NCBI RefSeq assembly: GCF_025526975.1
Contig: NW_026515668.1
Location: 1,798,001 to 1,862,000 of the forward strand
Direction: 5' to 3'
Origin: Fimicolochytrium jonesii
Lineage: Eukaryota
DNA length: 64,000 nt
The position numbers were made by a program, and so were the translations under genes. A model generated the notes under the pieces. The model ran no database searches. It was not told where the DNA came from and saw nothing but the letters and a program-made list of their open reading frames with translations. Positions 10,305-39,739 of the stretch are shown here, piece after piece. Every line of letters begins with the position of its first letter. The first letter of the stretch is position 1.

Positions 10305-10316
10305 TCACCCCCTCCT

Positions 10317-15075: not shown

Positions 15076-15126
15076 GGTGATTTGGCGTGGAGGTACAGCG
15101 GCTGGGGGTTCTTGAGCAGATCAAAC

Positions 15127-15656
15127 TGTTATGAATGGGCGGAGCCGATGGAAATAGAGGCGACTTGTGGTGCAGGTTGTTGACAGGTAATGGTATTCAG
15201 ACCGAAACAAGAACTAGAACAAGACTAGGAAGAACTGGTGTTGATCTGCTGGGGGATCAGGAAGTGGGGAGCTCAGGGGAGGCGGCTATTTATGTTTTTC
15301 TGGGAAGGCTGGGGAAGCGTGGGGAAGCAGAAGGGTACGGAATGAGAGGGAAGCCAAGAGAAGCGCCAAGGGTGGGGAACCATAGAAACAGAAGACTGGG
15401 GATGGGGTGGCTACGCTGAGGCTGTGGGCGGGTACGTGGGGAAGTATGGAGAAGGGTTTGTGAGCGCCGAGTGTTGGGAGGTGTGGCTACGTGCGGCTGC
15501 GTGGAGAAATGAAGGCAGTGGCAGGTGTGGGGTAGCGCGGCTGCGTGCGGCTGCGAGGTTTGGCAGATGTCAGGTTTTGACAGGGAATTGACATTGACTG
15601 ACTGTTGGGATGCTGTCATGAGGTAAGCGCATGGTATGGACGCGTCGTCCATAACA
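15127..15656 (-). repeat. 5' LTR of copy A, shared as the 3' LTR of a tandem second copy
   Basis: Preceded by the PBS region and followed immediately by the PPT and chromodomain sequence of another copy. Confidence 0.95.
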
Positions 15657-16066
15657 TCACCCCCTCCTTTAGCCACGGCGTCCGGATGTTGTTTTGATGT
15701 TGGCAGGCTTTGGTCGGGGTTTGTCGGGGTACTTTTGGTGGAACTGGGCAACAAGCTCTTGACAGCGGGCAAGGTGTTCCACTGGCTCCCATGTGTTCTG
15801 CGAGCTTGGCCAACCCTGCCACTTGATGAGGTACTGAAGGTGCGTGCGTCGAATACGGGAGTCAAGAATGTCTTCCACAATCCATTCCTCCTGTCCTTCG
15901 ACTTCTTCTGGTGGGGTGGGTTCTGGCTCAGTTCGCTCCGGAATGGTGAAACGTGGTTCAAGAAGGGAGACATGGAAGACGTTGTGAATTTTGTAGGATG
16001 GGGGAAGCTTGAGGCGATATGTGACCGAGTTGATCTTCTCCGTGATTGTGAAGGGGCCAATCTTAC
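15657..16066 (-). mobile_element. 3' fragment (PPT + integrase C-terminus/chromodomain) of a tandem third copy
   Basis: Near-identical to 10305-10714; cut at 16066 by an inverted LTR. Confidence 0.93.
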
Positions 16067-16597
16067 TGTTATGGACGACGCGTCCATACCATGCGCTTAC
16101 CTCATGACAGCATCCCAACAGTCAGTCAATGTCAATTCCCTGTCAAAACCTGACATCTGCCAAACCTCGCAGCCGCACGCAGCCGCGCTACCCCACACCT
16201 GCCACTGCCTTCATTTCTCCACGCAGCCGCACGTAGCCACACCTCCCAACACTCGGCGCTTACAAACCCTTCTCCATACTTCCCCACGTACCCGCCCACA
16301 GCCTCAGCGTAGCCACCCCATCCCCAGTCTTCTGTTTCTATGCTTCCCCCACCCTTGGCGCTTCTCTTGGCTTCCCTCTCATTCCGTACCCTTCTGCTTC
16401 CCCACGCTTCCCCAGCCTTCCCAGAAAAGCATAAATAGCCGCCTCCCCTGAGCTCCCCACTTCCTGATCCCCCAGCAGATCAACACCAGTTCTTCCTAGT
16501 CTTGTTCTAGTTCTTGTTTCGGTCTGAATACCATTACCTGTCAACAACCTGCACCACAAGTCGCCTCTATTTCCATCGGCTCCGCCCATTCATAACA
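16067..16597 (+). repeat. Solo LTR of the same family in inverted orientation, flanks not duplicated
   Basis: TGTTATGGAC...TTCATAACA. Left flank CTTAC and right flank ATCAG do not form a TSD. It truncates the viral fibre gene. Confidence 0.95.
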
Positions 16598-19500
16598 ATC
16601 AGTGGTCCAAGTAGAACCAGGTATATTCGAAAACGTTGCAATGGTTACCATAGCGGACTCGGTAGTTCCGGCAATAACGGAGAACGTAGTAGGCATCGCC
16701 ACGGCGTCCATCAGGTAGGCGGTGAGTTTGATTGAACTCATAGCAATGGCCGACGGGAGTCTCAATAAAGAGTAATGAAGATTTTGCGTTGTTCCATCTA
16801 AACCTAAATTGGCTGTCGAAGTGCTTGCGGTTGCCCACCGCAGTCTGGAAGCGATGGAGGCGTTCATGTAAGCGTCGAATGGATGACCTGTATACGAATC
16901 GACTCCGTTCGAATTTGGGTATGTATACTCAGATGACGCGGTAACTGTATACCCGTTCCATGAAGAACCTGTTGCTGGCGTTGTGGGGTAAGGGAACAAA
17001 GTAGTTTTCGATGTTAAGGCAGGACTGTTCAAATCACTGGTCACATGGAGATTTGACCCAACATATAAAGATTTCGCTACAGATGCGCCTCCATTCACTT
17101 GAAGAGCGCCTGATGCGTTAGAAGTGGCATCAGTAGTGGTCAAGATCGATACAGTACCACTGTTGTTCAGATTTCCCCCAACATATAAAGATTTCGCTAC
17201 AGAAATCCCTCCAGAAACTTGGAAAGAACCGGTTCCTACTCCTGTAGAATCCGTTGTGGTAAAGACCGCGACGTTACCACTGCTGGTGGAGACTTTAGAC
17301 CAAGTGGTATTTTCGGCCGAATTCCACACGGAAAAATCTCCTACAGTTCTCAAGTCGTCCCATACTCTGATATAAGGATTGGAAGACTGATTTGGGTCTA
17401 TGGAGAGAGGACCTTGTGAACCTGTAGCAGAAATTGTTGCTAAACTCCCGGTGAAAGTCATGTTTCCTGTAACTGTCAAACTGCCGATAGAACCATTAGG
17501 AATAATAACCTTTCCCGTACCATCAATTGTAAGACCTTGTGGTGCATTCCATAATCCCAAACCCAACGTATTGGTTGCAAGACCCGCTCCAACATAGTTG
17601 AAATATACCCTGGCCATGTTATTTGTAGCCGCTCCTACTCCAATTTGAAGTGTTGAGAAACTCCCCGCTGCCAAGTTCGGTGTCCCAAGATGGCTGCTAA
17701 CAATAGGTCCGGTTGAGGCGATATTGGAGTATATGGTGCCGTTAACAGTCAAGTCTTTACCAAAATTGACATTCCCTGCAATACCCGCTCCACCTCTCAC
17801 CTGAAGGGAACCTGATGTTGTCGTAGTAGAATCTATAGTGGAAAGAATCTGTACAGATGGCAGATTAGAGTTGATTATGAAATTGGCATTCGAACCGGAA
17901 TAGAGAAAAAAGTTCCCAGCATTTGGAGCGGTCGTATTGACTCCTGCGTAACCAAAAGCCCCCACTACCGTTCCTGTGTTGTTAAGGAAACCGATAGTAG
18001 AAAACCCAGATGCCGAAAGACTCTGAAGTTTCAAAATATCAACAGAAGTTGAGTTTACTTGCAGTGTATGACTTCCCGTGGCGGCTGAACCAGCAAATAG
18101 AGATTTTCCCACACCTAGACCTCCAGCAACTGTTAGAGCGCCAGTTGTTGTAGAAGAGGAGTCCGTTGTTGTATTGATTAGAACATTTCCATTTGTCAAT
18201 ATATCAAGGTTTGATACGCCGGGTGAGATAGCGAATCGTAAGTTTGTCGGTGAATTATTGTACTGTGCCCGAATTACCATATCGCCAATAGCCGAATTTG
18301 AGGAAAAATACCCTGCTGCTGAAACGTTGCCCGTTATGCTGCTTCCAAATGTGGGTGTTGATACCGAACCGTTGTACCAGAAGATACTTTGATTTGACCC
18401 GACAAAACTCCCATCACTTCCTACCGTCAATTTCTTGGCGATACCAACACCTCCGGCGACCTGTAAAGCGCCAGCATTTGTAGCGTTGGAGTCGGATACC
18501 GAATTGATAGTTAGTGCATTCGTTGTCACATTCACCCATAACGCAAGATTTGCGGCAGTATTGTTGTATAAGCCGAAATTATTAGTTCCAAGGCCACTAA
18601 TTCGACCTATATGCCACAAAGTCCAACCTCCACCGTTTGAGTTTATAAGACCTACAGAAGGTCCATTTCCGGCTGTAGATTCTTTTATGATTCCATATCC
18701 ACCGACGTATAATGATTTAGCAACTCCAACGCCGCCTGCAACTTGGAGAGCACCAGCATTTATAACGTTGGAGTCAAGAGTAGAAGTAACTACAGTCGAT
18801 GCAGCGTTATTTATATTCAAAGTCTGTCCTGTTGTGGTATTCAGGTTCGCTGTTGTTCCTCCTAGGAATACGGTGCCGCCAACCACCACACTTTTCCCCA
18901 CACCAACTCCTCAAACAACTTGGAGCGCACCTGATGTGGTCGAGGTAGAATCAGTCGTTCCGGCAATTTGAACATTGGATAAGTTCGCATTTCCACCAAC
19001 ATTCAAAGATGATAGAGTTCCAACGCTTGTAATTTGAGGCTGAGCAGGATTTACGCTGAACGCATTTCCACTACGTGTCAATCCTGTTCCAGCACTAAGA
19101 AGCGTATCAACATATGTCTTGTTTGTAAGATGAGTTGCTAAGGTCGGTGCTGTTGAGACGACAGCGTTTCCTGACACCGTGACATCTCCAGCAAAGATCG
19201 CATTTCCATTAACGTTCAATGATGATAAAGTTCCAACCGATGTTATCTGAGGTTGAGCCACATTGACAGAGAAATTGTTTCCTGTACGTGTTAAACCGGT
19301 TCCTGCACTTAGAAGCGTATCAACATAAGTCTTATTTGTAAGATGTGTCCCCAATGTCGGGACAGTTGATACAACTACATTTCCTGACACCGTGACATCT
19401 CCAGCAAAGTTCGCATTTCCATTAACGCTCAATGATGATAGGGTCCCAAGAGATGTTATCTGAGGTTGAGCCACATTGACAGAGAAATTGTTTCCTGTTT

Positions 19501-22500
19501 TTGTCAATCCCGTTCCAGCAGTTGAGACTAAACCATCGACGTATGACTTTTGGGCAACCGTTTGATCAATATTACTATATGGAAGGACGCTGGTTCCCAC
19601 GTCGGTAGAGAGGTCTACTACACTTTTGACCGCTAATGACCCGAGCCCTAATGCTGTCCTAGATGCTGATGGAGTCGTTGAGACAAAATTACTTCCATCT
19701 CCTACAAGGAAATTGTTGAGAGTGGCGGTGCTCGAAGAAATAGCAGTCAATTTTCCATTTAGTGGTTGCGCTCCCGTTTGCATTGTAGAAATCAATCCAT
19801 CCACATATGATTTTGTTGCGGGATTTGCTGCAATTGTAGGTGTAGGAACAGTGACTGCACCTGTAAATGTGCTAGAACCAGAAACGGAAAGGCCCGTTAA
19901 AGTACCGATACTTGTAATTTGTGTTTGTACAGGATTGACACTTAAAGTCTGAGCAGTTTTAGTTAAACCCGTTCCTGCAATAACAATGTTAGGATCGATA
20001 CTGGCAACGGAAAGGACCCCACTCACATCTGAACTTGCAAGATTTATAACGGATTTAGCCGCCAAACTGCCAAGTGTAGGCTTGTTTGTAAGTAAAGCCG
20101 AAGCATAGTCAATGCTGTTGAGTGCTGCAAGTGAACCAAGCGTAGGTTTTCCTGTTATGTATGTACTTGTGTAATCAATGCTATTTAGCGCGGAGAGACT
20201 GCCCAAATTCGGTTTGTTCACCAACGCCGAACTAGTGTAGTCTAACGTATCGAGCAAACTCAGATTTTTTAATGAGAGATTCGCACGAACGTCTGCAGGA
20301 CTGTACTGAATGAAGTTCCCACCCGATGCGATGAGCATAAAAGTATTTGTCGGTGCAATGTTCCCAAAATTTGTAAGACGAGCATTAAGTGGTTGATACG
20401 TTGTGGCTGCATTTGCTGTTGTAAGATAATTTGTCAAGGTAGGACTGCTTATGGAGCCGGCGGTCAAAGCGCCTGTTACGTTAAGAGATGTGAGTGTTCC
20501 AAGAGTAGTGATATTTGAGGTATTGACGGAAACAGTGTTAGATGTATCTCTGGAAATAATAGGTCCAGCAAATGTTAATTTCTTCTCGTAGATGGTGAGA
20601 TCTGGAGCACCCGTTATTCTCGCATACGGAATGGTATCCGTTTTTGCAACTTTACCATCGATAGCAGTCTGAAGAAGATTTGTATTCTGACTGATCAAAT
20701 TTGAATACGTTGGCTGTATTATTGTAGAGTCGTATTGACGTAGCATATCCAAGTTGATTGCCTGCTGTGGTACCTCTCCTGCAATACCCAGATATGAACA
20801 TGGAGGTGGGGTGTCAAAAAGTAATCTCGTAACATCACAGGATGTATCATCCGTTTTTGGGAGAGTTGCAATGATAACTTGTGAACCGTTTGGATCTGGA
20901 ACGGGGTTTCCCTTTGAATCCACTACATTGTTGCCATTTGCGTCTTTCTGGTTCTTTCTTTCTCGACCACTCGCAGCGATGAAACCACCAAGGATTCCGG
21001 CTGCTGCAGCAGGTCCTCCGAGAAGTCCCCCAACGCTTCCGATAGCAGATGTGGCAAATGGAGTGCCAGCCGCAGGCCCAATGAGGCCAATTGCGCCTCC
21101 AAGGATGGTAGAAAGGGGACCAGTGACGGAGACTACGGGGTTTCCGGAAGCAGTTAAAGGATCAGATTCGCCACTGGGCACTGAGGTTTCGTCTTTCTCT
21201 TCCGGATCATCATCTTCTTTCCGGTTCTTGTAGGGCTGAATTTGATGAGATATTGAACCCGGTTTCCTCGGAGCCAACTACCAAAATGCCACTTCCGCCC
21301 GTTATGACTAAAGGCTGTTTTGCGATGTTATACTCCTTATCCGCTCCCGTGACGATGATAGGCAACGTTCCAGTTAGTACATTTGGCGTTTCTGGTTCTG
21401 GTTGGTATGTACATGATATTGTCGATCCACTTATACTGATATTGTTTCCAGCCGTATAGGCGCCGGAAATATTATTCCCTGTAACGGTCACCCCATTTGA
21501 TCCAGTATAGGCACCTCTTATTGAGTTGCCTGTCACCGTAACAGTCGAATCACCAGCCTGTAAATCCAACTGCAAATCATTTTCTATGCGTTTGACTCCA
21601 TTACTTGCTGTGAGTTTCTCACCGAACGTGTTGTTACCATCGAATGTGATTGCACCTGAGACAGATGGAGCGAGTTTCACTTGATTCGAATTCTCTAATT
21701 TCATTCCGCCATTTCCAGGTTGAAAAGTCAGTCCTATCGCAATCTTATCGTTTACAATGCGAACACCTTTATTGTCGACGATAGCCGACGGATTTACCAA
21801 AAGATTTTGTGAAGAGTCAATTGCTAAACTTGCATCTGTTCTAACATCGATAGTACGCCGTCCATTGGACACTCCGGATATGTCTATACCTGACCCTGCT
21901 TGATACAGTTGCTCCACGTATGCAGTACTTGGCACTTGATTATTGTCCGGATTGAAGTCGGTATTGACGTATATATGCGGAACATGTAATTCATTGAGTG
22001 TTTCATTATACGTAAAACCACTGTCTCCATTCAACCCCGATAATGCAGAATAGAATGGTACTTGCCTCATACCCTTCGAACGGATCGCTAGTTTTCCTCC
22101 TGTTTGCTGGAAATCATCAGTCGTCTTCAAACGCACAACAGTTGTATCAACATCCGTATCATCTCCTAGAAAATCCGCAAGGGAATCAAACCCTTCTTGT
22201 AGGACATCTTCGAGCAAGATACTGGAACCTTTATCATTCAAGATTGCCCCTCGTCCAACAATCACTGTATCAATATCCGTCTCCAGTTTCCCTTCATCGT
22301 TTACTTTCAACCCTTTCCCATAATTGAGGTGGATAACCTTGTCCTGATCTTTCGAGAGCGGTTCTGCTACCTCCAAAGATTGATCAACGATCGCCTGAAT
22401 GTTCTCTGGAACAACAGACAACTGACCGTTTTCAACTGTCAATGTGGAGTCAATATCCAAAGAGATTCCTTGTACGTTACGCGTCATCGGGGCTGTCAAA

Positions 22501-23012
22501 GGCTCTTTGACAACTTTCAATTTACCATTATTGACCTCTAATGAATCATCAAAATTCAATTTAAGTCCATCGTCTCTTGACAGGGGTTCTTGAAGATTTT
22601 CCAGTTCAGGCGGGGGAAAATTTACAGTCAAACCTTCATTGCTCATTGAAAGAGTCTGATCATGAAACAAAGTCAATCCGTCCTGACTTACTCCAAGAGG
22701 CAGGTTTGTCAAAAGGGAAACAGTTCGGCTTCCGTCATCCCTTTGGAGGGGAAATTCCATATTGTCATGGACTAATTCAATTGAAGCCACTCCTTCGGTT
22801 TTGTGAATAATCGCGTCTTTGCTATCGACAAGGTCGTTGATTTTTAATTCGCCGTTTTCATTAGATATCTTTTGAAAGCCTGGTGAATGAAAATTATCAA
22901 TTGATACGTTCTCTCCATTAGCACGAAGACTATTGGTCACTAAAGGAGAAACGAGATTTGTTCGTTCAAGCACTCTGATTCCGCTTGAGGTTCGGGAATT
23001 TAGACTGCTCAT
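16598..23012 (-). pseudogene. Giant virion fibre/spike protein (>2100 aa); +1 frameshift near 21220, TGA at 18911-18913, C-terminus truncated by the solo LTR
   Basis: Three ORFs (21210-23012, 18911-21277, 16541-18901) read as one protein. It has beta-spiral-like repeats (PLSRDDGLKLNFDDSLEVNNGKL), 60-aa AGTGLT..NFSVN repeats, TTDS..GALQVxGGVGxxKSLYVG repeats and a discoidin-like tip (YTVTASSEY...RWAT). The TGA replaces a GGA within the repeat consensus. Confidence 0.75.
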
Positions 23013-23032
23013 TTACTAATTGCTAAAGAAAA

Positions 23033-23329
23033 TTATCCGATTGGAGTTTGCTGTAAATGTTCTAAGAATTGATCACCGCCTTTATGGAAATCTTCAACCC
23101 TCTTTATTCCTAGATCTGCAAACTGTTGCCCTTTTCGCGCAGTTTCTTTGATTTTATCGTGGAAGACGTCATTCTGTTGAATCCCTTTGTTTACATGGCT
23201 TGCTATCGCATATCCCTTTCGACTAACGGAAACCGCTTTGTCTAGAAAATTCCTCGCCTTTCCGATATTTTGTGGCAGTTCGTTGAAAAATGTGCGCACT
23301 TTTCCTCTCGCTTTTTGAAAGAATCCCAT
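23033..23329 (-). CDS. Small basic amphipathic protein (98 aa), candidate myristoylated membrane-active virion protein
   Basis: N-terminus MGFFQKARGKVRTFF with helical amphipathic pattern; carries the shared upstream motif. Function is inferred. Confidence 0.6.
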   Translation of the reverse strand: MGFFQKARGKVRTFFNELPQNIGKARNFLDKAVSVSRKGYAIASHVNKGIQQNDVFHDKIKETARKGQQFADLGIKRVEDFHKGGDQFLEHLQQTPIG

Positions 23330-23377
23330 TGAATATTCTTTTTCTTAACATGTACTAAAGAATATATATTCCATTCT

Positions 23378-24874
23378 ATGTTGGTTCTTGACGACAAGTT
23401 TGCTCGATTGCCAAACAATACTTTTCCCTCCCCTCCAGTGTTGAATATCCATTCAAATCAGTTCGGTTACATACAGGGAAAGCCGGAAGAGACCTTTGAC
23501 CGTTTATTCAAAACTCCCTTCTTCGTTCCAGGCAAAGGGAAAATATCGGATGCATTCTCTATAAAAAAGACTGTAGATCAACCACTCAAACTCCGTGAAG
23601 GAGAGTACCAGTCTCAGATTGCAAAACAGGCTGTGGAAGCGCTCCATGCTATCGATAAGGAACGTGCAAGACAAGCATACTTTGATGAATTGGATAAAGA
23701 CAATCTTTTCCCTCGACAAGGTCGAACGGTTTCTTTGACGAAAACCACAGCGTCGAAAGGCAATACAATTTACCATCAGCCGAGTTACATTCGCGCTCAA
23801 CAGAATCAATTCATCGGAGATGCATCATCCAATGTGCAACGAACCGGTGATGATCACCTTCCGGAAAAAGCAAACATGAGTGAAGCAAATACGATACTTG
23901 GTAACAACAAGGTGGTAACAAAAATGAACGATCGTGAAACATTGACGGACGAAATTGGTAGAATCGGTTCTGCTGAAAAGATAAGCATGTCAAATAGCCG
24001 CACACAGACAGATATTCCTCTCCATCGGGTTCGAGATCTTAGAACAGTTGGAACGCAGAGTACAACACCGGATCTAGACAGCGATACGTTAGATCTTACA
24101 TTCTCGTCTGGAGGAAAATTTACACATTTTATGGATGGAGTAACTCACGCGAATCAAACCTTGCAAACACAACTCCGATCCCAAGAAGAGCAACTTGGAA
24201 GAATGACAACAGCCACAATGTCTACGTTCAAAAGAATGTTAGAATCGGTAGGTTTTAAAAATGTTCCTTCGACAATGACGCCGGACGAGATGGAACGACT
24301 TCTCAGCCAAGTGCAAAGCGTCACACCTATCGCATTAAGTGAAGTAGGAGCGATGCAAAGATTGATAGAAACTTTAAGAAAGGAAAAGATTACAGAAAGC
24401 AAAGATGTAGGGACACAATATTCTCTTGGAGATGTGCCGCGGGTTGCTAGACCACGCCCACCACCCATTATTACGAATTTCTCACCAACAATAAGTTATC
24501 CATCTGCCAGTTCAGCAGTCACTCAAAGCGACATTTTCCTGAATAGGAGTCCAAAATCTACCCTTTCAACTGGAACGGTAGGATCCCGTATGGATCTCTC
24601 CACACCAATTGAACAATTTGTTACCGCCGAACCGATTACTCAAGTTCTTTCCCCAAATGAGGATTCTGCAACACCAACACAGAGAGATATCTTCACCGAT
24701 TCCCCAGCAGTGAGGGCTTCAGAAAATACACCCATTGCGCCAATAAGGAAAAGAAAAGTACACGAGCAAGTTTACCTCCCGAGAGATTATCTTATGAACA
24801 CGGCTGGGAACAATCTTCAAAACGGGCACGAAAAGTATAAGATGAAAAGATCATCATTGTATAGAGGATTATAA
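23378..24874 (+). CDS. Viral hypothetical protein (498 aa), S/T/P-rich with basic C-terminus
   Basis: Long intact ORF inside the structural module. Confidence 0.75.
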   Translation: MLVLDDKFARLPNNTFPSPPVLNIHSNQFGYIQGKPEETFDRLFKTPFFVPGKGKISDAFSIKKTVDQPLKLREGEYQSQIAKQAVEALHAIDKERARQAYFDELDKDNLFPRQGRTVSLTKTTASKGNTIYHQPSYIRAQQNQFIGDASSNVQRTGDDHLPEKANMSEANTILGNNKVVTKMNDRETLTDEIGRIGSAEKISMSNSRTQTDIPLHRVRDLRTVGTQSTTPDLDSDTLDLTFSSGGKFTHFMDGVTHANQTLQTQLRSQEEQLGRMTTATMSTFKRMLESVGFKNVPSTMTPDEMERLLSQVQSVTPIALSEVGAMQRLIETLRKEKITESKDVGTQYSLGDVPRVARPRPPPIITNFSPTISYPSASSAVTQSDIFLNRSPKSTLSTGTVGSRMDLSTPIEQFVTAEPITQVLSPNEDSATPTQRDIFTDSPAVRASENTPIAPIRKRKVHEQVYLPRDYLMNTAGNNLQNGHEKYKMKRSSLYRGL

Positions 24875-24926
24875 TTGTAATATTTGAGAATCATAAAATT
24901 CTGAAATGTACAAAAGCGCATAAGTT

Positions 24927-25064
24927 TTAAACGATCGTCTTCCCGGCTCGTCGAGCAAGGATAAATGGAAGCAGTTGTGGAGGGATTACACCTTTTTTCG
25001 GTTTTCCCGATTTTGTTCTAGCAGGTATGCGAACTGGTTTCAAAACCTTTTGTTTTCTCGGCAT
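24927..25064 (-). CDS. 45-aa K/R/P-rich protein, candidate genome-condensing core protein (below the ORF-track cutoff)
   Basis: Hand translation MPRKQKVLKPVRIPARTKSGKPKKGVIPPQLLPFILARRAGKTIV*. It fills the gap directly downstream of the MCP gene. Confidence 0.55.
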   Translation of the reverse strand: MPRKQKVLKPVRIPARTKSGKPKKGVIPPQLLPFILARRAGKTIV

Positions 25065-25092
25065 TGGTTTCTACTATATGATTAGAAGATTT

Positions 25093-26319
25093 TTAACCTA
25101 TAATATCGACGGTTGCTCCAATCAAGATGGTGCGTTGTGAATAGACGGTTGTTTGCAATGCGACGGCGGTACTAGGGGCGGGTAAATTATGTGTCGTAAT
25201 TAGATGTACGTTTCCGGAGCCTCCAAGTAGGTTCAAAGCGCTACTGGAATCTTCATCTGCGCTTTGCCACGAATAACGCATTACGAACTGTTTGTTGTAA
25301 AAGTTATCGAGGTCCAGGTCTTCAGAGGCGTATGATGTATTGTCGTTCATGGAGAGGTTGCCTATCATAACCGTATCTTCTATTTGGAAATCTTCGGTCA
25401 AAGGTAATCTATATTGGCCTATCTGGTATCTCCATGACTTCAAGTTGGCTGTATCATAAATCAGAGATTTGTCCCCTGATGTAGTGGCGTATTTATTATC
25501 GTCTCTAAACCTATGTGTTAATCCGACGATCCGGCCGTTTGTGAGTGGGAGGATGAAATTGTTCTGTGACGCACCACTGCATACATTGGATAACTGCGAA
25601 ACTGAAACGACATCCATTTCCAGATATTTTCCTGATTTTATACCGGACCACAATGCGGACATATAAGTGGCACTCGGGGTCAAAAGTTGTGCTACATAAC
25701 GAAGATTTGAAACTTCAAAGTATACTCCAGAACCTATATTTGAAAAGGCACTCTGCGGGGTATTCAAAGTGAAAGTTAATTCCACTGATTGATTTGGTAA
25801 AATAGCTAGTGGAATCGGGTTTCCGTTCAACGGCCTCATGGACCCTGCCAACAAATGGTGTTTGAATGTGAAAGTTCCGTTCGGATTTTTGAAAGCATCC
25901 GGGTTACCTGCACCTTCGTTATATTTTAGGTATTTTCGTTTTTCTGCCTCCACAAACTGGAGAGTGTCCGCAACAAAACTTGGCATATCTTCAATTTCGT
26001 CAACAACTTTTCCGCCAAACTTTATGTTCATCGTTCGGAAGCAAGCCATCGCCCCGATTTGAGAAATCTGCGCATCCGTGACGGGGCTGCCATCCGCGTT
26101 TTTAACAGAAATTGTTCCCGATAGATACGAACGTTGAGGTCTCAAAAAGGAACTATTGGAATCAACTACGATCTTTATAGCATTTCCAGGTGATTTTGAA
26201 CTAAACGTCTCCTTGATTGGGCCATAAATCGCAATATTTTCGCTGAGAGCGTCTGAATGCATCGAAAATTGTCTGCTACTATAGATCCGGTTTGAAGGAA
26301 CAACGGGATTTGTTGACAT
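25093..26319 (-). CDS. Major capsid protein (double jelly-roll, PLV-type), intact, 408 aa
   Basis: N-terminal pattern SPGNAIKIVV...FLRPQRSYLSGTISV...FRTMNIKFGGKVVDEI resembles PLV/virophage MCPs. Beta-rich, appropriate size, adjacent to penton and ATPase. Confidence 0.82.
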   Translation of the reverse strand: MSTNPVVPSNRIYSSRQFSMHSDALSENIAIYGPIKETFSSKSPGNAIKIVVDSNSSFLRPQRSYLSGTISVKNADGSPVTDAQISQIGAMACFRTMNIKFGGKVVDEIEDMPSFVADTLQFVEAEKRKYLKYNEGAGNPDAFKNPNGTFTFKHHLLAGSMRPLNGNPIPLAILPNQSVELTFTLNTPQSAFSNIGSGVYFEVSNLRYVAQLLTPSATYMSALWSGIKSGKYLEMDVVSVSQLSNVCSGASQNNFILPLTNGRIVGLTHRFRDDNKYATTSGDKSLIYDTANLKSWRYQIGQYRLPLTEDFQIEDTVMIGNLSMNDNTSYASEDLDLDNFYNKQFVMRYSWQSADEDSSSALNLLGGSGNVHLITTHNLPAPSTAVALQTTVYSQRTILIGATVDIIG

Positions 26320-26374
26320 TATTTTAAGTTATAATGGTTTAACATATCTCTTAGAAAAAAATAATCGAGGTCCA

Positions 26375-26845
26375 TCAACGTCCACCGAAGATTCCCATAT
26401 ACGGGTCATCATCTGCTTCGGGAGGATCAAATTCTACAAACGTGTTTTCCTCCACAGAGTCGTCTTTGTACGCAGCAGGTTGAAGCGCTTTCGGCATTCG
26501 ATTGATTTTTGCTATACGCTCTTGTCGCTTTTGTTCAGCGATTTTCTTTTTTTCCGCTTCATATTTCTCAATTATCTTTCTTGCTTCGTCTTTTTTAGAT
26601 TCTTTTGCCCTTTTGTCTTGCTCCTTTTCCTGTTCTTTATCTGCTTTCTCTTTTAGTTCCTTCATCTTCTTCAAGTTCTCGGTACGTTTCTCTTGCGCTC
26701 GACGCATTGCTTCGATCTGCTTTTCAGATCGCGGCTTTTTGACCTTCACCTTTTCAATAACAGCCTCGGTGATCGGGTCGTCAACAATTGGTTTTTCTTC
26801 CTGTACAGGAGGGTTTTCAGTAGATGCGCTTTTGTTTTCTGACAT
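26375..26845 (-). CDS. Charged coiled-coil viral protein (KKPRSEKQIEAMRRAQEKR)
   Basis: Intact ORF between penton and MCP, carrying the shared upstream motif. Confidence 0.7.
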   Translation of the reverse strand: MSENKSASTENPPVQEEKPIVDDPITEAVIEKVKVKKPRSEKQIEAMRRAQEKRTENLKKMKELKEKADKEQEKEQDKRAKESKKDEARKIIEKYEAEKKKIAEQKRQERIAKINRMPKALQPAAYKDDSVEENTFVEFDPPEADDDPYMGIFGGR

Positions 26846-26886
26846 TTTGTTCAATGTTTTACTGTACAGAAGAGAAAAAAAATTCG

Positions 26887-27637
26887 TTATACAACGAGGT
26901 CACTAGGGTCGTCTAAAATTCCCAGATGAACTGTTATTGGAGCGGATGTTCTCACAACTTGCAACGATGCACTATCGACGATTTGGAAATCAATTTGATT
27001 GAGTGTAAGATCTTCGGCTCGATGAAAGTTGTCACTCGGGTTGACCCATGTCAAGATATCTCCATACGAATCAGGATTTAATCGCTGCTAAACAATTGAT
27101 GTCCGAGTCAATACCAGCCGGATAAAGAATCGCTCCATTTGTCTGTAGAGTCCTTGAAGTTATTAGAATTGGTTGTGATGCGGATAGATTGAGTGTGTTT
27201 GGAAATGTTATACTTGATCCATATCCGGTTTCATTCACTTTATCGATACCAAGTTGCAGAAAAGCGCTTGAACCACGGGATCCTCCGAGGATCTTGAACG
27301 TTTTACTTCCAGAGGTCGAAACAGTTAGTCTTCGAGTCACTCCATCGTAAGACACACTGTACGGTTGTGATCCCGCTGCAGTCATTGCGCTTCCAAGAGC
27401 ACTCAAAATGTTTGTTGAATCGTACGTCCCTTCGGGCAAAGTCGCTTTTCTTAAAGTCGTAGATCCCGACTCAGCAAAAACAACCGCGTTGTTAAAATCC
27501 GATGTCGCACTCCATGACTGCAGTAGAGATACCGAAATAAGTCTCCATGCATAGCACGGGACGGTATTTTGAAGACGAAATGTACAATTATTCATATCTG
27601 GTAACGTACCAGAATTGAGGATAATCTCTCGAAACAT
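26887..27637 (-). pseudogene. Minor capsid protein (penton, single jelly-roll) with a +1 frameshift near 27078
   Basis: Penton-like LPEGTYDSTNILSALGSAM...YSVSYDGVTRRLTV. Removing one A from ATTAAATCC extends the frame with NPDSYGDILTWVNP...LNQIDFQIVD...ITVHLGILDDPSDLVV* (about 249 aa). Confidence 0.78.
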
Positions 27638-27692
27638 CGATTTCTTATCTTTGGTATAATGTAAAGAGATTAATTTTACGAGTGCGCTAAAT

Positions 27693-28427
27693 ATGAGAAT
27701 TGCTAAACCGAAAATTCCTTCCGAATATCAGATACACATAAAGGACAAAACTCCGAGTGATTATCCAAAAAAGTTTTTCACATTAACGCTGGTGGGAAGC
27801 AGTAGGGCTGGAAAGACCACCTGTATTATCAATCTTATCCAGAATTGTGCAAAAGCGTATCAAACGGTGGTGGTTTTCTCTCCAAGTGCTGACTCACCGG
27901 AATGGACAAGTTTGAAGAAATGCGATAACGTTTACATGTCCAGCGTTGTATCAAATCATATTCTGAACAACCTTTTTGAGAAACAGAAACTACTTTATAA
28001 ACAAGATAAATCCAAAAATCATATGCTGTTAATTTTGGATGATTTTGGTATCCTCGCAAAAGAAAACGGCCCCGCAATTGGAAAGGAACCTAAAGAACCG
28101 GAACTGATATCGAGCGGGGTTAGGCAAATGCTGGATTTACTGTACTCCAGGGCGAGACATAATGGAATGTCGGTTCTCTGTTCTCTTCATGATACAAAAC
28201 AACTCACACCGTTACAAAGAGTCAACAGCACTCATTGGATATTGTACAGATTGAACCAAAAGCAATACGAAAAGATTGCGGGTGAGATTCGCTGTCATTT
28301 GTCCGAGTCGGAGTTTGTAGATTTAGCCGAGAGATATACTGTCAATCCTTACCATGCGCTCTACATAGATTTGAAAAGCCCGACAAACGAAGGAGTCTTT
28401 AAACAATTGCAACCAGAAACGCATTAA
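27693..28427 (+). CDS. A32-like (FtsK/HerA superfamily) DNA-packaging ATPase, intact
   Basis: Walker A GSSRAGKT, Walker B LLILDD, arginine-finger segment SRARHNGMS and downstream LTPLQRVNSTH. Confidence 0.92.
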   Translation: MRIAKPKIPSEYQIHIKDKTPSDYPKKFFTLTLVGSSRAGKTTCIINLIQNCAKAYQTVVVFSPSADSPEWTSLKKCDNVYMSSVVSNHILNNLFEKQKLLYKQDKSKNHMLLILDDFGILAKENGPAIGKEPKEPELISSGVRQMLDLLYSRARHNGMSVLCSLHDTKQLTPLQRVNSTHWILYRLNQKQYEKIAGEIRCHLSESEFVDLAERYTVNPYHALYIDLKSPTNEGVFKQLQPETH

Positions 28428-28943
28428 AGAAAAAATTGTGGACTTAAAGTATAAGATGTTTGATAACATTTTCTATTTGCCAAATTCGCTAACCAAAGAA
28501 TCTTTTGACAAACTTATCACAGGATAGGCTTTGGTTAGATATGCCGGAGGACGTAAGGACGAGAACTTTACAACAATGTAAGGAAGAAATAGTTGTGAAT
28601 ATCGTTCAGTCGCATTTGGACAAGCAGGTTCCAGTCAAAACTCCAAGAAGAACAAAGGCCGCTTGAAGATTTTTAAGATCTCCGTCCTAAATATGACGTA
28701 AAACTATTATCCTGCAAGTTGAGCAACAAAGACAACTTCCGCACGGCCAACTCCTGAACAAATAATGCCATTTACTATTTGGGTTGTGCTTTTCAGGCTT
28801 TTCGAATCTTGCCTATATAGTATGACCTCTTGACTGAGCGCTCATTGCCCGAGAAAAGGTTCAGGTATTTTTATCAATTTTTACCGAACAATGACAAAAA
28901 ATTGACCACAACATTAATTTGTGGTCAATTGATAAACAAACTA

Positions 28944-30257
28944 ATGGCTCCTCCTTTAACCGAAGAGCAATTGAGATTCATCAACGATCTTTACTACAAG
29001 AAACATAATATACAGGGTCGGGATAGACTGTTTTTTCTAACTCAAAAACTCGGGTCGGACATCTCCAGACGCCAAATAATGGATTACCTGGATAAGCAAG
29101 AAATCCATCAGAAATTCACTCGCCCGCTCTGATTTACTGGCGTCAGAGCGATTGTCTCCACCAAGCATGGATCATTCCAAGCGGATACTTTAGCAATGGA
29201 AAGTGAAAGTTATCGCGGTTTCACGGCAATCTTTTCAATGATAGATACTTTCAGTAGAAAGTTATACGCGAAGCCGATACGTACAAAATCCGCTGCCGAA
29301 TGTACCCGAGTCCTCCGAGAGATTCTCGCACAAAATCCTAATATTGTCTTTGATCGATTGCAAACCGATAACGGAACCGAGTTCCAAAATGTTTTTTCAG
29401 AACTTCTTCGGGAGCAAGGAGTGCGACATGATGTCCCTCGTCCGGGTCAACCGTTTTCTAACGGACTTATAGAAAGAAGCAATTTTGCGGTACGAAAAGC
29501 ATGCGTAACTTATATGGAAACGACGGGGAAAAGAGATTGGCCAGACATGCTAGACAAACTGGTCGATAATTTGAACAATACATTCAACAGTACAACAAGA
29601 AAAAGTCCAAACGAACTGGAGGAAACCGCTGCAGATTCGGAAATTCATAAACAGGCTGGGGAGAACATTATAAACAGAGCAAATAGATCAGTACAAACTC
29701 GTGGAGCGACCTTGCTCCATGAGGGCGACAAAGTTTGTAGAGTACTCCAATATTCTGGAAGCGGTATCAAGAAAGCGTCGCGGCTCGGATATTTCGACAT
29801 AAACAATTTGTATGAAGTGACATCCGTTGTTCAAAGTCCTTACCCGAACGCGTTACCGAGTTATAAACTCAAAGACGCAAACGGAACCATACTCAAAGGA
29901 TTGTGGTCGCGAGCGCAACTTCTCAAAGTTCCGTTCAGTGATCATCGTATCGATAGGAGACAAATTTTAGACGAAGACGACAACAGACAAGATGGTGGAG
30001 AAGATGCTCCGGCAAACATAGAAGAAGAGGACGAGGAAGAACATCCTTCCAGACGTTCGGGACGAATCAATAAAGACAGAGAATACGAAGTGGAGTACAT
30101 TATTGATAATAGAAGAGTCAAAGTGGGAAGACGAACATTCATTGAATATCTAGTAAAATACAAAGACTATCCTATCGAACAAAGTACTTGGGAACGTGTG
30201 AGCAACATAAATGCGCCAGATCTAATTCGAGAATTCGAGAATCGTAATAGGCGCTAG
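28944..30257 (+). pseudogene. Polinton-type RVE (DDE) integrase with C-terminal chromodomain; one in-frame TGA at 29130-29132
   Basis: ORFs 28830-29132 and 29196-30257 share a frame. DDE motifs FQADT, LQTDNGTEF, NGLIER; chromodomain EYEVEYIIDNR...EYLVKYKDYPIEQSTWE. Confidence 0.9.
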
Positions 30258-30263: not shown

Positions 30264-31256
30264 TCATTTCTTGTCAAAGATCAAAGACTTGTATCGATTA
30301 TAGTATTGTTGATGAACCGAGTAAGTATGATCGAGTCTTTTCTCAATTTTCCTTTGATATTCCAAGTCGCCATTGTCCTTCTCGCTCAGATAGATACCGA
30401 GACTTTGACGAAATCTCCAAACAGTCAAACGGCGCTTTTTGAACATTTTTTCCATAACATCCGCGAATCTATTCAGAAACCATTCATCTGTTGGATCGCC
30501 TCCGTTCTGTTTGCAGAAAAGGTAGTTCTGACCGGCCTTTTGTCGAGCCTCCATAAGCATTTTCGCATACTTTCTCCCGTTACCTTTCAGATTGATTTCG
30601 TGGGAACGACCTGTCTTGTTTGCATCTTTGACAACTATTTTAGAACAGTCACTCTCAATGTAAACATCCGCGTTTTGATCGAAACATGTGGTGGAGATAT
30701 CCCCTCTCAACATTTTATCGCTTGACCAAAATATGATCAGGGCAACAAGCATTTGATTCTTGATAATATTCTCACTTGTAAGCGTGGAAAGGACTTCTTT
30801 GATTTTGCCGACTATATCAAGAAACGGAACATAGTTTTCAAGATCCAGTTCGGTCATTTTTTGTTCATCGTTTCCCTTTTGGCGTTTCTCTTTTTCTTCA
30901 GGAGAAAGGGACATCTTGGTGAAGTGTTCGAGGATATCCTCATTGAATTGCTTATCGACCATCTCGTCGCTAAGATCTTTTTCATTATCAAAAAGAATCC
31001 GCTTTTCTTTAGCGCTCATATTTCTAAGGACTTTCGAGAGAAACTTCACTTTATTGGCGCGGGTATGCTTATTCGACCATTTTTTCTCGATTGACGAAAG
31101 TAGATCTTTAGGCTTTTTTACAAGATGAAGTTGATCGCTCAGTACGTTACAGGACGAAACCATGGATCTGTGATCCTTATTGCTGTCCTTAATGCGATTG
31201 AGCACACTTAGGCAGAATTTATGGTTGAAAGCGGGGTTTTGATTGTTGTCTGACAT
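30264..31256 (-). CDS. Tyrosine recombinase-like protein (PLV-type), intact, 330 aa
   Basis: Catalytic-type residues in order: LRGD (R), NKTG (K), WRFRQS (HxxR position, His absent), LDHT...QQYY (H, Y). Confidence 0.7.
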   Translation of the reverse strand: MSDNNQNPAFNHKFCLSVLNRIKDSNKDHRSMVSSCNVLSDQLHLVKKPKDLLSSIEKKWSNKHTRANKVKFLSKVLRNMSAKEKRILFDNEKDLSDEMVDKQFNEDILEHFTKMSLSPEEKEKRQKGNDEQKMTELDLENYVPFLDIVGKIKEVLSTLTSENIIKNQMLVALIIFWSSDKMLRGDISTTCFDQNADVYIESDCSKIVVKDANKTGRSHEINLKGNGRKYAKMLMEARQKAGQNYLFCKQNGGDPTDEWFLNRFADVMEKMFKKRRLTVWRFRQSLGIYLSEKDNGDLEYQRKIEKRLDHTYSVHQQYYNRYKSLIFDKK

Positions 31257-31412
31257 TATTCTCTATTATAAACGTGTATATGTTTATACCAGAAAATAGT
31301 TCTATGGCCGATATAAAAAATCGGCCTACTTATGCTTAATTGGATGTCATCGAGATTACGATCCTATTACAATTAAACTCGGTAAGTTGATATGATTTAA
31401 GTCATGATGATG

Positions 31413-33285: not shown

Positions 33286-33510
33286 ATGGATAATATCCCT
33301 ACATACAGTCCCAGCGTAAAAGCGCTCACAAACGATACCGAATCGCTTGCAGCAAATATCGGCGAACTTCTGGAATCCGACAATTTAAGTGAAGATGTTC
33401 GCTTTCATTTGGAATCTTTTCGAGTTCACTTAACGGAACACCTTGCAAAGGCCCAAGCCTTGTCGGTTTCTTGGGACAAGATCTTGGAACTTGCGTCCAA
33501 AAAATGGTAA
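33286..33510 (+). CDS. Small helical viral hypothetical protein (74 aa from MDNIPT)
   Basis: ORF starting at CAAAATGG in the packed viral region. Confidence 0.5.
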   Translation: MDNIPTYSPSVKALTNDTESLAANIGELLESDNLSEDVRFHLESFRVHLTEHLAKAQALSVSWDKILELASKKW

Positions 33511-33569
33511 AATTGCGTTTGCTCATTATTTAAAGCAATCGACAGAGTAACTTATAACTTCTTTTTATT

Positions 33570-33773
33570 ATGCCCAGAGAAACGATCCGTGGACGGCCTA
33601 TGAAGCACCCGTCAAATGGAAGACCCCTCATTCCACCGAGAACACGAAAATGCAAGGAAGAAACTTGCAATGAAATTATTCCATTTCAACCCAGACGGAT
33701 GTACTGTTTAACCCATTTCATGAAAAAAATTGAACTCCCAGTTGGGTTTCAACTTGAACCGGATAGCGATTGA
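33570..33773 (+). CDS. Small putative zinc-finger protein with AT-hook-like RGRP
   Basis: C-x4-C-x12-C-x2-H (CKEETC...CLTH) and N-terminal RGRP. Confidence 0.55.
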   Translation: MPRETIRGRPMKHPSNGRPLIPPRTRKCKEETCNEIIPFQPRRMYCLTHFMKKIELPVGFQLEPDSD

Positions 33774-33778
33774 TGTTC

Positions 33779-34009
33779 TCACCCGTTGTCCACCTTTTTC
33801 ACCTTCCGAGTAATGGAGATGTTTCTTGCAGATCGGCATGTTGGTTTTCGAGCGATAATGTCCAGAACTGTACATTGGCACAGATTCAGTTTCTTTGCCA
33901 AGTCGCGAAGGCTCTTTCCATCGATTTGTTTAATTTCTCTGTCATAAAAGGATATGTCCGCTGTATATGTGAACGGACTAAGCATTTCCGATGTTGCTTT
34001 ATTAATCAA
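33779..34009 (-). CDS. Small helix-turn-helix protein
   Basis: KSLRDLAKKLNLCQCTVLDIIARK fits an HTH pattern; divergent from the replicase gene. Confidence 0.5.
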   Translation of the reverse strand: MINKATSEMLSPFTYTADISFYDREIKQIDGKSLRDLAKKLNLCQCTVLDIIARKPTCRSARNISITRKVKKVDNG

Positions 34010-34077: not shown

Positions 34078-36898
34078 ATGACTCAACACAAACAAGCTCT
34101 AACTGGGGAAAAACGCGCGGCAATGGACATCAGGTTTGTCAAGTCTTCTAAACGTTTGCGTGTAAACGACCGAGTCCGACGTGACCGTGCAATAAGCGCT
34201 GGGGATTATGATCTCGCAAGAAAGATCGAAGAAGAAGCAATTCCCTTTGCTGGGAGGGAATCGCATCTATCTATTGGAGAGAATGGAAGCGATATCATCA
34301 ATACTAGTATCGTATGTAGTGAAAGCAGTGAAGAGGCTCATTCTTCGGAAAGGGACATGGAAAGCACCCATTTACCGAACATTCCAGGTGTAACATACCG
34401 AGGTGAAGTTGATAATGACCAAGATGACCAAGATGACCACCTTTATCATGAAAAATTTGACCTTCCCCTCGTCAAGCACGAGTTCCAACATGACGGTCGA
34501 GTTCAGAACTTGATTACAAGCAAATACGTGGACGCAAAGACTAAAAACGGGCTTCGATATATGAAAAGATTCAAAGTTGCACCAAATACGTACAAAGTCG
34601 AATATAATCATGGAAAAGATGCTTTGGAAATTGCAAGTGGGCGACTTGTACCAAATCATTTCTCGTTGCAGCAAATGCCCGCACGCGAAACCCAGCATAG
34701 ACAGTATCTGTCTTGCGGGCAATATGACGACGTCGATTTTGTAAACTGTCAGCCGACTATTGCCAATCAGTTTCTCCTTCAACGCAATCTAATTGTTCCG
34801 CAAATGCAATACTATGTTGAAAATCGACAGGACTGTCTTAAAAAATGGAATATGGAGAAACATGATGTGGATTGCGGTACTCAACACCGTTAACGCGGTA
34901 AATTGTCACCCCGATCTCAAAGCCATTCACCGTGCCATTTATGAGAAACTCGTCCCCATCCTTGAGGAGGAAAACCCTGATATTTGGCAAAAAGTTTTGA
35001 AATCTCGAAAACCGAAAACAGTCAATAACCGCGAAGGATCATTTTTCTCGCAGGTGTGCCAAACGACCGAAAACACGATGCTGCTCCTTATGCACCACTA
35101 CTTTCTTAATGCAAAGTTTCGTCCCGATGTTCTCATTTCTGATGGTTGCCAGATTCGTAAAGATCCCGAAAATCCTCTTACCCCTGAACACTTGCGAGCA
35201 TGCGAGCAATACATCTTTGACAAAACTCAAATGCAGATGAGGATAGCCATTAAACCTATGGAAGTTCCCGCCTCCTACTATGAAAGATTTGGTTTAATTG
35301 CGGATAATGATCATCACCAATTATTTCCCATCGTGGATGAGAACACGGTATTTGCTGAATCAACCGAGGAGAAAGAGCCTTTATTTCTCGAACCTCTGTA
35401 CCCAGAAAATCCACGTCTTGACGAACTAGCAAAGAGCATGATCTGTGAAAAGTCTCACGCGGCATGTGCTCAATTCATCTCCGAATTATGGAGAAACGAT
35501 TTCTTCTATGGAGATAATAGTTGGTGGCACTTTGAAAATCATTACTGGAAAGATTCACCTTATTCTATGACGCATAAAATAATGTTCGAGTTATTCCCAA
35601 TCCTTGACGAATTGACAAGTTGGCGCGACACAGGTGGTGATCTAGATGGACATATCTCGAATCTCAAGCGGAGTTTATCGGATTTACCCACATCCAAGAA
35701 TATCGCATCCGCGTGTATTGGTCATTTTCAGAAACTAGACTATCACGCATTTAAATGTAGTTTGAGTCGAGACTTGGCGCTACTGTGCTTCAAAAATGGA
35801 GTCTACGATTTGAACGCCGGACATCTTAGGGATGGCAAACCCCAAGACCGCATCTCTATACAGATTAATTACGACTTTGTTGATTTTTCGCTCCCGGAAA
35901 ACGTGCATATTTTGAAGCGTCTTGGGACGATTCTCCAACAAATCCTTCCAGATCGTGACGAGCGGGAGTATGTTCTTGATATCCTGGCTTGTGCTCTTGG
36001 AGGAAAAAGGACCAATAAACTTGAAATCCTTCTCGGCGAGGGCGCAAATGGAAAATCGCTGCTGACTCAACTTATGGAGTTAGCATTAGGGCCATATGCA
36101 ACCTCTTGGAGCACCGCAATGCTGTGTACAGAATTCGACCCTACCGCACCAAACACCGAGTTGAACAGGGCCAGACACGTCCGATTCATCAATATCCAAG
36201 AAGGCAAAAAATCATCGCAGTTTAACATGGGAACATTTCGAAAGTACACGGGAGGAGATTCCTTCAATGGTATACGCGATCTCTTTGAGAAAGGAAGCGG
36301 GGTAAATTCATTCGTACTGCATGCTCAACTTTGGCTATCACTCAATACGCTTATGGCAATATCAGAGGCGAATCACGCAACTTGGAGACGGTTAGAGTTG
36401 CTTGAAATGCGGTCCAAATTTGTCGAGGCTGAGTCTGAGGTAGATGTGAAAAACAATCGGTATCTCGCGGATGAGTGTTTGAAGAAAGAACTAACCAGTC
36501 TTGCTCCGGCATTCATGTGGTTGTTAATTGAAAAACGCTACAGAAACATGCGAGACAAAAACGACTTTGTTTTATCTCCGCCCACCTCAGTTGTTGAAGC
36601 AACGGAGAGATATCGCAGTGAACAGAATGTTTATCAACTCTTCTTTGATGACATGTGTACCTTTGAATCTGAAGGCCGCATCTTCAATACGGAACTATTT
36701 GAGAAATGTCAGCAGTGGGCAAAAATCAACCTTAAAGCGGTTACAAAGGCCGATATGAAAAAGTGGCTGTTGAGCCAACCGGGCGTTCAATGGAAAGATT
36801 CGTTAAAGATCATGAAAAGCGTAGGCGACTTTGGTCAAAGAAGTGTAGACAAAGTGTCACGAGGATATCTAGGAATCAAATTGAACAAGTATGAGTAG
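34078..36898 (+). pseudogene. TV-Pol (family-A-related primase-polymerase) fused to D5-like SF3 helicase; +1 frameshift near 34870
   Basis: GRLV..FSLQQM, motif A DVDFVNCQP, YYVENR, QTTEN, motif C LISDG; D5_N LLCFKNGVYDL; Walker A GEGANGKS, IQE, RRLE; C-terminal winged helix. Confidence 0.85.
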
Positions 36899-37340: not shown

Positions 37341-37484
37341 CACTCGATAACGTTGTTATTCGCGCAAAGTAACAGGACCAATCCGGAGACAACGGAGAGG
37401 GTTTCGTGTAGTCCTGGCAAGAATTGGCTCGAAGTCGTTTAATAAAAGAAGGCCCAGCGAGGTCACGTGACTGGAGTCGTGCCG

Positions 37485-39170: not shown

Positions 39171-39197
39171 CCGCCTGCAGCGCCTCAGCGTCCAGAC

Positions 39198-39727: not shown

Positions 39728-39739
39728 TCACCCCCTCCT

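Follow-up and report, generated by a model that had tools for sequence, protein, structure and literature searches.

A Polinton-like virus (PLV) integrated in the genome of the chytrid Fimicolochytrium jonesii has a shared sequence element before each of the eight genes that make up its virion module. The virus occupies positions 16599-37700 of the window, by which we mean the whole stretch of 64,000 nucleotides (nt) analysed here (contig NW_026515668.1 of assembly GCF_025526975.1, positions 1,798,001 to 1,862,000 of the forward strand; all coordinates below are those of the window). Each copy of the element consists of an A/T-rich tract ending in TCT, a short spacer of nearly constant length, and TAAA or a close variant of it. 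The element is probably real and, judging from its placement relative to the genes, it is probably a promoter. The more specific reading that we favour, with some reserve, is that it could be the late core promoter of the virion module and could be read by transcription machinery that a helper giant virus provides.

Upstream sites of the virion module

The original prediction had placed the motif TCT-N11-TAA before five genes (fibre, a gene of 98 amino acids (aa), the major capsid protein (MCP), a coiled-coil gene and the packaging ATPase), with near-variants before the starts at 23378 and 25064 and before the penton gene, and with none before the integrase or TV-Pol. The five sites are exact in position and strand, the near-variants are present, and TCT-N11-TAA precedes none of the eight non-virion genes considered (integrase, TV-Pol and six others). 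For counting, a site was described as at least seven A/T bases out of nine, followed by TCT, 10-11 nt and TAAA with at most one mismatch; both the A/T-tract rule and this relaxed descriptor were picked post hoc. The sites are as follows (ORF, open reading frame).

23012..23038, minus strand: fibre gene; TCT at 23029-23027, -17 from the ATG; spacer of 11 nt; TAAA merging with the start codon (TAAATG)
23344..23370, minus strand: 98-aa gene; TCT at 23361-23359, -32 from the ATG; 11 nt; TAAG; interlocked with the site of the 498-aa gene
23334..23359, plus strand: 498-aa gene; TCT at 23343-23345; 10 nt; TAAA at 23356-23359
25070..25095, minus strand: 45-aa ORF (start at 25064), weak site; TCT at 25086-25084; 10 nt; TAGA
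26338..26364, minus strand: MCP gene; T tract; TCTA (TCT at 26355-26353), -36; 11 nt after TCT; TAAA
26858..26884, minus strand: 156-aa coiled-coil gene; T tract; TCT at 26875-26873, -30; 11 nt; TAAA
27650..27676, minus strand: penton gene, variant site; TCT at 27667-27665; 11 nt; CAAA; interlocked with the ATPase site
27639..27665, plus strand: A32 ATPase gene; TCT at 27648-27650, -45; 11 nt; TAAA at 27662-27665

The spacer measures 10 or 11 nt at all eight sites, while other pairs of spacer lengths account for three to five of them and the overlapping pair 11/12 for seven. The word that follows is exactly TAAA at five sites (fibre, 498-aa, MCP, coiled-coil and ATPase) and has one mismatch at the other three; these mismatches may postdate the insertion, since the virus is decayed. 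At least seven of the nine bases upstream of TCT are A/T in 8/8 sites and the spacer itself is mostly A/T, while the base directly after TCT is T in five cases, A in two (MCP and 45-aa ORF) and C in one. The upstream region of the ATPase gene holds a second TCT-N11-TAA match at 27643, and the site of the coiled-coil gene begins directly past the true stop codon of the penton gene.

The relaxed descriptor is found upstream of 8/8 virion-module genes and of one of eight other genes (Fisher p 0.0014, for a descriptor chosen post hoc), the latter being the tyrosine-recombinase-like ORF (TCT, 10 nt, TATA). TCT by itself is present in 8/8 virion and 4/8 non-virion upstream regions. Nine matches to TCT-N11-TAA occur within 16600-37700, six of them in upstream regions of the virion module and three elsewhere (25391, 30116 and 33546), and the exact descriptor has zero sites in 42.9 kb of host flanks, which are more GC-rich. 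The internal ORF starts of the broken fibre gene are without a site, as is expected if these ORFs are fragments of one gene.

An exact TCT-N11-TAAA is also present at 33526-33555 (minus strand), 6 nt upstream of a 66-aa ORF (33326-33526) that is antisense to a 74-aa ORF (33286-33510); it marks either a ninth late gene or a chance match before a shadow ORF. The gap between the recombinase-like ORF and a 172-aa ORF (31257-31412) contains back-to-back TCT sites at 31293 (minus) and 31301 (plus) as well as several short palindromes. The site at 31301 is an exact match, with no gene behind it.

Both divergent gene pairs of the module (98-aa/498-aa, 48 nt apart, and penton/ATPase, 55 nt apart) hold two interlocked copies of the element, which point towards each other, the two TCTs being separated by 13-14 nt and each TAAA abutting the TCT of its partner. 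As these sites lie between divergent start codons, they do not mark the 3' end of a gene arranged in tandem upstream. Where the genes are in tandem (four cases), the tract starts at most a few bases from the stop codon of the preceding gene. An ATG is present inside the spacer at four of the eight sites (three independent loci) and none is found between TAAA and the true start, which weakly fits initiation at TAAA. The intergenic gaps of the module measure 20-55 nt; a TATA box at a constant distance is absent from them. A search for 3' hairpins gave no strong rule (folds of -8 to -17 kcal/mol, values that carry no shuffle control).

Comparison with shuffled sequences

Taken as a fixed pattern, TCT-N11-TAA reaches five of eight genes in 0/20000 dinucleotide shuffles, and when shuffling preserves trinucleotides and the spacer may take any length from 3 to 25, this number is attained in 2/3000. 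A de novo search for one site per gene recovered, in 8/8 virion upstream regions, a G plus an A/T tract whose end is formed by TCT or lies close to it. At widths of 17-21, this motif was attained by 0 of 243-255 shuffles, and by 0/202 when trinucleotides were kept; with the six independent loci as input, the figure was 5/344 at width 18. As a control, eight compositionally similar upstream regions of non-virion genes went through the same procedure and gave no significant motif (18/191 and 72/227).

Geometry was assessed by shuffling the six intergenic loci jointly and accepting any adjacent pair of spacer lengths from 3 to 22. Neither dinucleotide (0/3000) nor trinucleotide shuffles (0/3000) gave 8/8, and none gave five exact-TAAA sites. 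When any 3-mer core, any 4-mer and any spacer were allowed and an A/T tract was required, the observed result was attained by 0/949 and 1/1108 shuffles, and the top patterns of this search all consist of TCT and an A-rich word.

Early-type motif upstream of the integrase

The sequence AAAATTGA, described as the early motif of mimivirids, occurs as a back-to-back pair at 28881-28874 (minus) and 28898-28905 (plus). The pair precedes the integrase start by 46 nt and the ATG (28845) of a decayed ORF on the minus strand by 36 nt. No exact copy precedes any of the eight virion genes. By analogy with giant viruses, the pair upstream of the integrase is a candidate for early promoters.

The pair is followed, within 28874-28933, by an inverted repeat with 11-bp arms directly upstream of the integrase start, making this stretch a possible early promoter plus operator. 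The gap between the ATPase and integrase genes (28428-28850) is heavily decayed and has ATGs at 28456 (plus) and 28845 (minus), each after an exact or one-mismatch AAAATTGA.

Transcription of the virion module

The shared cis-element proposed for the virion module in the original prediction is borne out in a wider form: it is non-random, nearly confined to the module, found between divergent starts, present before eight genes and not five, and probably a promoter. Its timing is likely to be late, as judged only from the identity of the genes. In the mechanism that we favour, the tract and TCT would together make up the core to which a TBP/TFIIB-like factor binds, some one helical turn upstream, and transcription would start in TAAA and yield monocistronic mRNAs with leaders of 0-30 nt. 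The AAAATTGA copies before the integrase would represent the early class, and a chytrid nucleocytovirus would supply the late factors. No match to RNA polymerase, TBP, TFIIB or late transcription factor (VLTF) families was found among the ORFs of the element that were scanned, and a post-replicative promoter served by nucleocytovirus machinery that a helper supplies is therefore favoured.

A helper giant virus is plausible because giant viruses have been reported in Chytridiomycota. They are described in 12 chytridiomycete genomes, and the core set of the Mycodnaviridae is said there to include VLTF3 (PMC13533422). Gaertneriomyces semiglobifer, for which a giant-virus MCP gene is given (PMC13533422), also holds relatives of this PLV.

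Several observations weigh against the helper reading, or against the element on which it is built. The main text on the Mycodnaviridae does not mention RNA polymerase (PMC13533422), and some PLVs are described as replicating helper-free. AAAATTGA is missing before TV-Pol, the recombinase-like ORF and most non-virion genes, and it has seven copies in the element. Four of the eight virion-module genes have no known function, making the term "virion module" partly positional, and the analysis covers one copy of the element. The relaxed descriptor has 25 sites across the element, most of them away from virion genes, and the exact descriptor has eight, five at virion promoters and three not. TAAA is a common word in AT-rich DNA. 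In leave-one-out scoring with the core model, the sites of the 498-aa, 45-aa and penton genes are weak, with more than 100 better positions. The de novo search on six independent loci was not significant at width 26 (25/403), TCT-10/11-TAAA without the A/T-tract rule was matched by 34/628 and 83/703 shuffles, and the bare TCT-N11-TAA was equalled by 7.3% of 1000 shuffles once all patterns of the type 3-mer/gap/3-mer were considered.

It is possible, although we consider it unlikely, that the element is a real late promoter read by the host RNA polymerase II and switched on by a DNA-binding protein encoded by the virus, with no helper involved. The virus has integration genes of its own (the rve integrase and the recombinase-like ORF) and small orphan ORFs, one of which, of 68 aa, resembles a helix-turn-helix protein (E 0.04). 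Helper-independent PLVs are described, and two unrelated small-virus loci (L001 and L002, see below) show private upstream words of their own. On the other hand, no TBP, TFIIB or VLTF was matched among the scanned ORFs, a TATA box at a constant distance is missing from the gaps of 20-55 nt, and both the core-spacer-TAAA geometry and AAAATTGA are of giant-virus type.

A chance resemblance, in which AT-rich spacers of 20-55 nt were fitted post hoc by a flexible descriptor, is distinctly unlikely. It draws on the search-corrected value of the bare six-base pattern, which is borderline (p ~0.07), on the corresponding values without the A/T rule (0.05-0.12), on the small number of independent loci (six) and on the 25 sites of the relaxed form. 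The enrichment over shuffled sequence expected in the original prediction stands for the extended form with its post hoc tract rule (0/949, 1/1108) and is borderline for the bare pattern. Chance does not account well for a de novo motif that was matched by none of 243-255 shuffles and by none of 202 trinucleotide shuffles, while the AT-rich non-virion control was not significant; nor does it account for the distribution of TCT (8/8 virion regions, 4/8 others) or the result with the tract rule.

It is improbable that the pyrimidine tract leading to TCT is instead an RNA-processing signal, acting either as a 3' splice acceptor in a spliced, adenovirus-like late transcript or in forming the 3' end of the gene upstream. 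Four of the eight sites (fibre, 98-aa, 45-aa and coiled-coil) have a YAG at most 16 nt downstream, the 45-aa site has a branch-like CTAAT word, one strand carries six of the eight genes, and the tandem tracts start right after the upstream stop codon. A gene model from Geranomyces also joins the penton to the coiled-coil gene, with a predicted intron whose end lies immediately ahead of the coiled-coil start. In this model (P0004), a similar coiled-coil segment lies between penton and MCP, as read by eye; longer, fused versions of the coiled-coil protein were looked for and not found. Back-translation of a six-residue linker in P0004 gives a hint of similar sequence directly ahead of the Geranomyces coiled-coil start, but the ambiguity of the codons deprives it of value as evidence. 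Against processing, YAG is absent at the MCP, penton, ATPase and 498-aa genes, four sites lie between divergent starts where the strand concerned has no gene upstream, an ATG out of frame would stay ahead of the start if splicing took place at the 98-aa site, and the fixed distance to TAAA would be unexplained.

Initiation at TCT itself, as a host-type polypyrimidine initiator (TCT/TOP-like, a class with a known consensus) with TAA incidental, is highly improbable: TCT is invariant and pyrimidine-flanked and the coiled-coil site has a long pyrimidine run, but such a start would place an upstream ATG in 4/8 leaders, the MCP and 45-aa sites continue in purines, and we know of no such initiator in chytrids.

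The integrated virus and its genes

The region 16599-37700 is an endogenous PLV of about 21 kb, with about 42% GC compared with about 53% in the surrounding DNA, in which Gypsy-type long terminal repeat (LTR) elements are abundant. Several of the features used to recognise PLVs are present: a double jelly-roll MCP, an A32-type ATPase, an integrase, an SF3/D5 helicase and a length within 15-25 kb. The left end is truncated by an LTR at 16598 and the right end is approximate; no inverted pair of terminal repeats was found to span the virus, whose left end is LTR-cut. Decay is visible as an internal stop in the integrase, frameshifts in the penton and replication genes, and a fibre gene that is both split and cut by the LTR. 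The genes are listed below.

16599..23012, minus strand: long fibre gene, ORFs of 600, 611 and 579 aa, 3' end cut by the LTR (Av_adeno_fibre, E 1.3e-12)
23033..23329, minus strand: 98-aa basic helical ORF
23378..24874, plus strand: 498-aa ORF
24927..25064, minus strand: 45-aa very basic ORF
25093..26319, minus strand: MCP, 408 aa, double jelly-roll, intact ORF (predicted fold)
26375..26845, minus strand: 156-aa coiled-coil ORF
26887..27637, minus strand: penton-type minor capsid gene, frameshift near 27075 (named from position and sequence pattern)
27693..28427, plus strand: A32-type packaging ATPase, 244 aa (Pox_A32, E 1.7e-8)
28944..30257, plus strand: rve integrase with chromodomain, in-frame stop at 29130-29132 (family match)
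30264..31256, minus strand: tyrosine-recombinase-like ORF (weak match, E 5e-4, below the cut-off)
33779..33985, minus strand: 68-aa ORF with a weak helix-turn-helix match (E 0.04, below the cut-off)
34078..36898, plus strand: frameshifted replication gene with a C-terminal D5/SF3 helicase (D5_N; primase_Cterm, E 3e-33)

The predicted fold of the MCP matched an iridovirus capsid (Foldseek E 4e-14), and the capsids of PBCV-1, Sputnik and mavirus were matched too. The gene at 26887..27637, which we take to encode the penton from a familiar sequence pattern and from its position, had no family match, and its single-sequence fold was uninformative (pLDDT 40). The N-terminal part of the replication gene is presumably TV-Pol, a name we assume from its motifs only. 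The 68-aa helix-turn-helix-like ORF is a candidate for a regulator encoded by the element. It is convergent, within 33570-33985, with a 67-aa ORF in which Cys and His are spaced as in a zinc finger (by eye), and the two together are candidate regulators.

At the right end (37050-37620), an inverted repeat of 33 nt with imperfect pairing (37087-37162) is accompanied by short tandem repeats (11, 22 and 32 nt); this may be origin or terminal-repeat DNA. The LTR copy at the left end (16067-16600, inverted) is 99-100% identical to the LTRs of two flanking, near-identical Gypsy elements (9774-15726 and 39197-45144), and this near-identity suggests recent retrotransposon activity around the virus. 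The host flank holds, at 4786-4885, an inverted repeat whose 39-nt arms match perfectly around a 22-nt loop. No Rfam family matched within 16000-38500.

Related loci and literature

The named close homologues of the MCP and ATPase are all from Spizellomycetales-type chytrids, which makes it probable that the host is one as well. Sister elements, with MCP identities of 55-86%, are present in public chytrid assemblies; the gene records concerned include HDU90_008686 (Geranomyces variabilis), BC832DRAFT_591259/591261 (Gaertneriomyces semiglobifer) and PhCBS80983_g06331/g06200 (Powellomyces hirtus). The MCP is 41-61% identical to named proteins of Geranomyces, Gaertneriomyces, Powellomyces and Phlyctochytrium, the packaging ATPase 55-58% to Gaertneriomyces, and the fibre 39% to a Powellomyces model. 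A lineage with an MCP of about 410 aa is represented in gene models of the Spizellomycetales from Geranomyces, Gaertneriomyces, Powellomyces, Phlyctochytrium arcticum, Thoreauomyces and S. punctatus (SPPG_02195/07203/08453). In the supplement of Bellas and Sommaruga 2021 (PMC7805220), the MCPs given as matching S. punctatus match SPPG_00925. The present virus is probably outside the "S. punctatus group" of that study, because its MCP relatives are SPPG_02195/07203/08453 and not SPPG_00925, a separation made by gene ids and not by alignment. A 2026 preprint describes two distinct groups of chytrid PLV ATPases.

Protein-based scans of viral contigs returned no related locus. Scans of metagenomes returned two distant ATPase loci (L001 and L002), 23-27% identical and without an MCP of this family, in which the descriptor is present in 2/13 and 2/9 upstream regions, respectively (one L002 start being mis-set). 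A phage collection gave no ATPase match and distant helicase matches only. In viral contigs, spacers of 8-14 nt had counts of 15, 14, 21, 23, 11, 21 and 16, with no clear preference for 11 nt among the matches listed. A match from the scan of genome contigs was rejected as false, being cyanobacterial.

By eye, seven of 13 starts in L001 come directly after TAG(A), as TAGATG or TAGAATG, which is a lead towards a private promoter or start signal. L002 shows, also by eye, a recurring TTT-N1-2-AAAAG shortly upstream of several starts.

Upstream motifs, whether shared or type-specific, are described as common among virophages and PLVs, and the sharing of promoters between giant viruses and virophages or PLVs is documented. 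Literature searches on PLV or chytrid promoters listed no study that analyses the promoters of a fungal PLV, and the word "promoter" does not appear in the main text of those chytrid-relevant papers that were searched for it. An identical motif may nevertheless exist in an EMALE or Halocafeteria element. The giant viruses of zoosporic fungi have been described only recently, in a main text that likewise makes no mention of a promoter.

Comparison with known promoters

The element bears on the question of which PLVs need a giant-virus helper and how most of them transcribe their genes. If it proves conserved in sister elements and also precedes the late genes of a chytrid giant virus, a fungal PLV would be paired with its helper by sequence alone; if it is private and read by the host, it would be a further example of a known pattern. 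Spizellomyces punctatus is described as transformable, and the promoter is therefore open to test. A broader proposal, in which the chytrid PLV lineage would consist of virophages of fungal giant viruses and a hybrid promoter, with a CroV-like TCT core placed one helical turn ahead of a poxvirus-like TAAA initiator and interlocked head-to-head in the divergent pairs, would be the fingerprint of the late promoter of a fungal nucleocytovirus, must be considered doubtful.

The original prediction compared the motif with the late promoter shared by CroV and mavirus. That promoter is indeed TCTA flanked by A/T-rich DNA and is shared by EMALE04 (PMC8547959, PMC10945749, PMC5294985); ChlorV is also cited for it (PMC13196603). 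As in mavirus and EMALE04, a small integrating double-jelly-roll virus carries here a TCT-containing, A/T-flanked motif shortly upstream of its genes. Mavirus also has an rve integrase. The analogy is limited by the fact that only two of the eight sites read TCTA, a further point against the helper reading. In addition, a second word, TAAA, follows here at a fixed distance, unlike in the passages describing the CroV promoter; the host is likely fungal, the MCP belongs to a PLV lineage, unlike that of mavirus, and no helper is known. The motif is thus not the CroV promoter, although it may act like it.

The PLV PgVV/Gezel-14T and Sputnik carry the AAAATTGA early or AT-rich late promoters of their helpers (bioRxiv 10.1101/2022.07.28.501842; PMC11998528). 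Monocistronic genes, short AT-rich gaps and AAAATTGA before non-structural genes are common to these viruses and the present one. For PgVV, the early motif is described before Yrec and TVpol and the passages concerned report no late motif, whereas in the present virus only the integrase pair has an exact AAAATTGA and it is the virion genes that share a motif.

In a cryo-EM study of the vaccinia G8R intermediate promoter, the core spans -26 to -13 and TAAA -1 to +3; a clamp of TBP/TFIIB type holds the core, and the viral polymerase reads TAAA (PMC12917281). On the assumption that -1 is the T of TAAA, the present spacer occupies -12 to -2, TCT occupies -15 to -13, and the tract extends over roughly -26 to -16. 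The A/T-rich core is of the same length (about 14 bp), the spacer of 10-11 nt is alike, and TAAA is found at 5/8 sites. The poxvirus late promoter is described as a T-rich core, 5-7 bp and TAAAT, with TAAATG as the late initiator (PMC5294985), and the fibre site likewise ends in TAAATG. Unlike here, where the core has an invariant TCT end, the vaccinia core has no sequence consensus, and the present virus is not a poxvirus and encodes no recognisable polymerase. Should the element prove conserved in sister elements and also stand before late genes of a chytrid giant virus, CroV-type late promoters with their TCT(A) core and the core-spacer-TAAA layout of poxviruses might well be one architecture. 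Of the systems compared, the core-spacer-TAAA geometry of poxvirus intermediate promoters appears to be a better match to the element than the TCTA of CroV.

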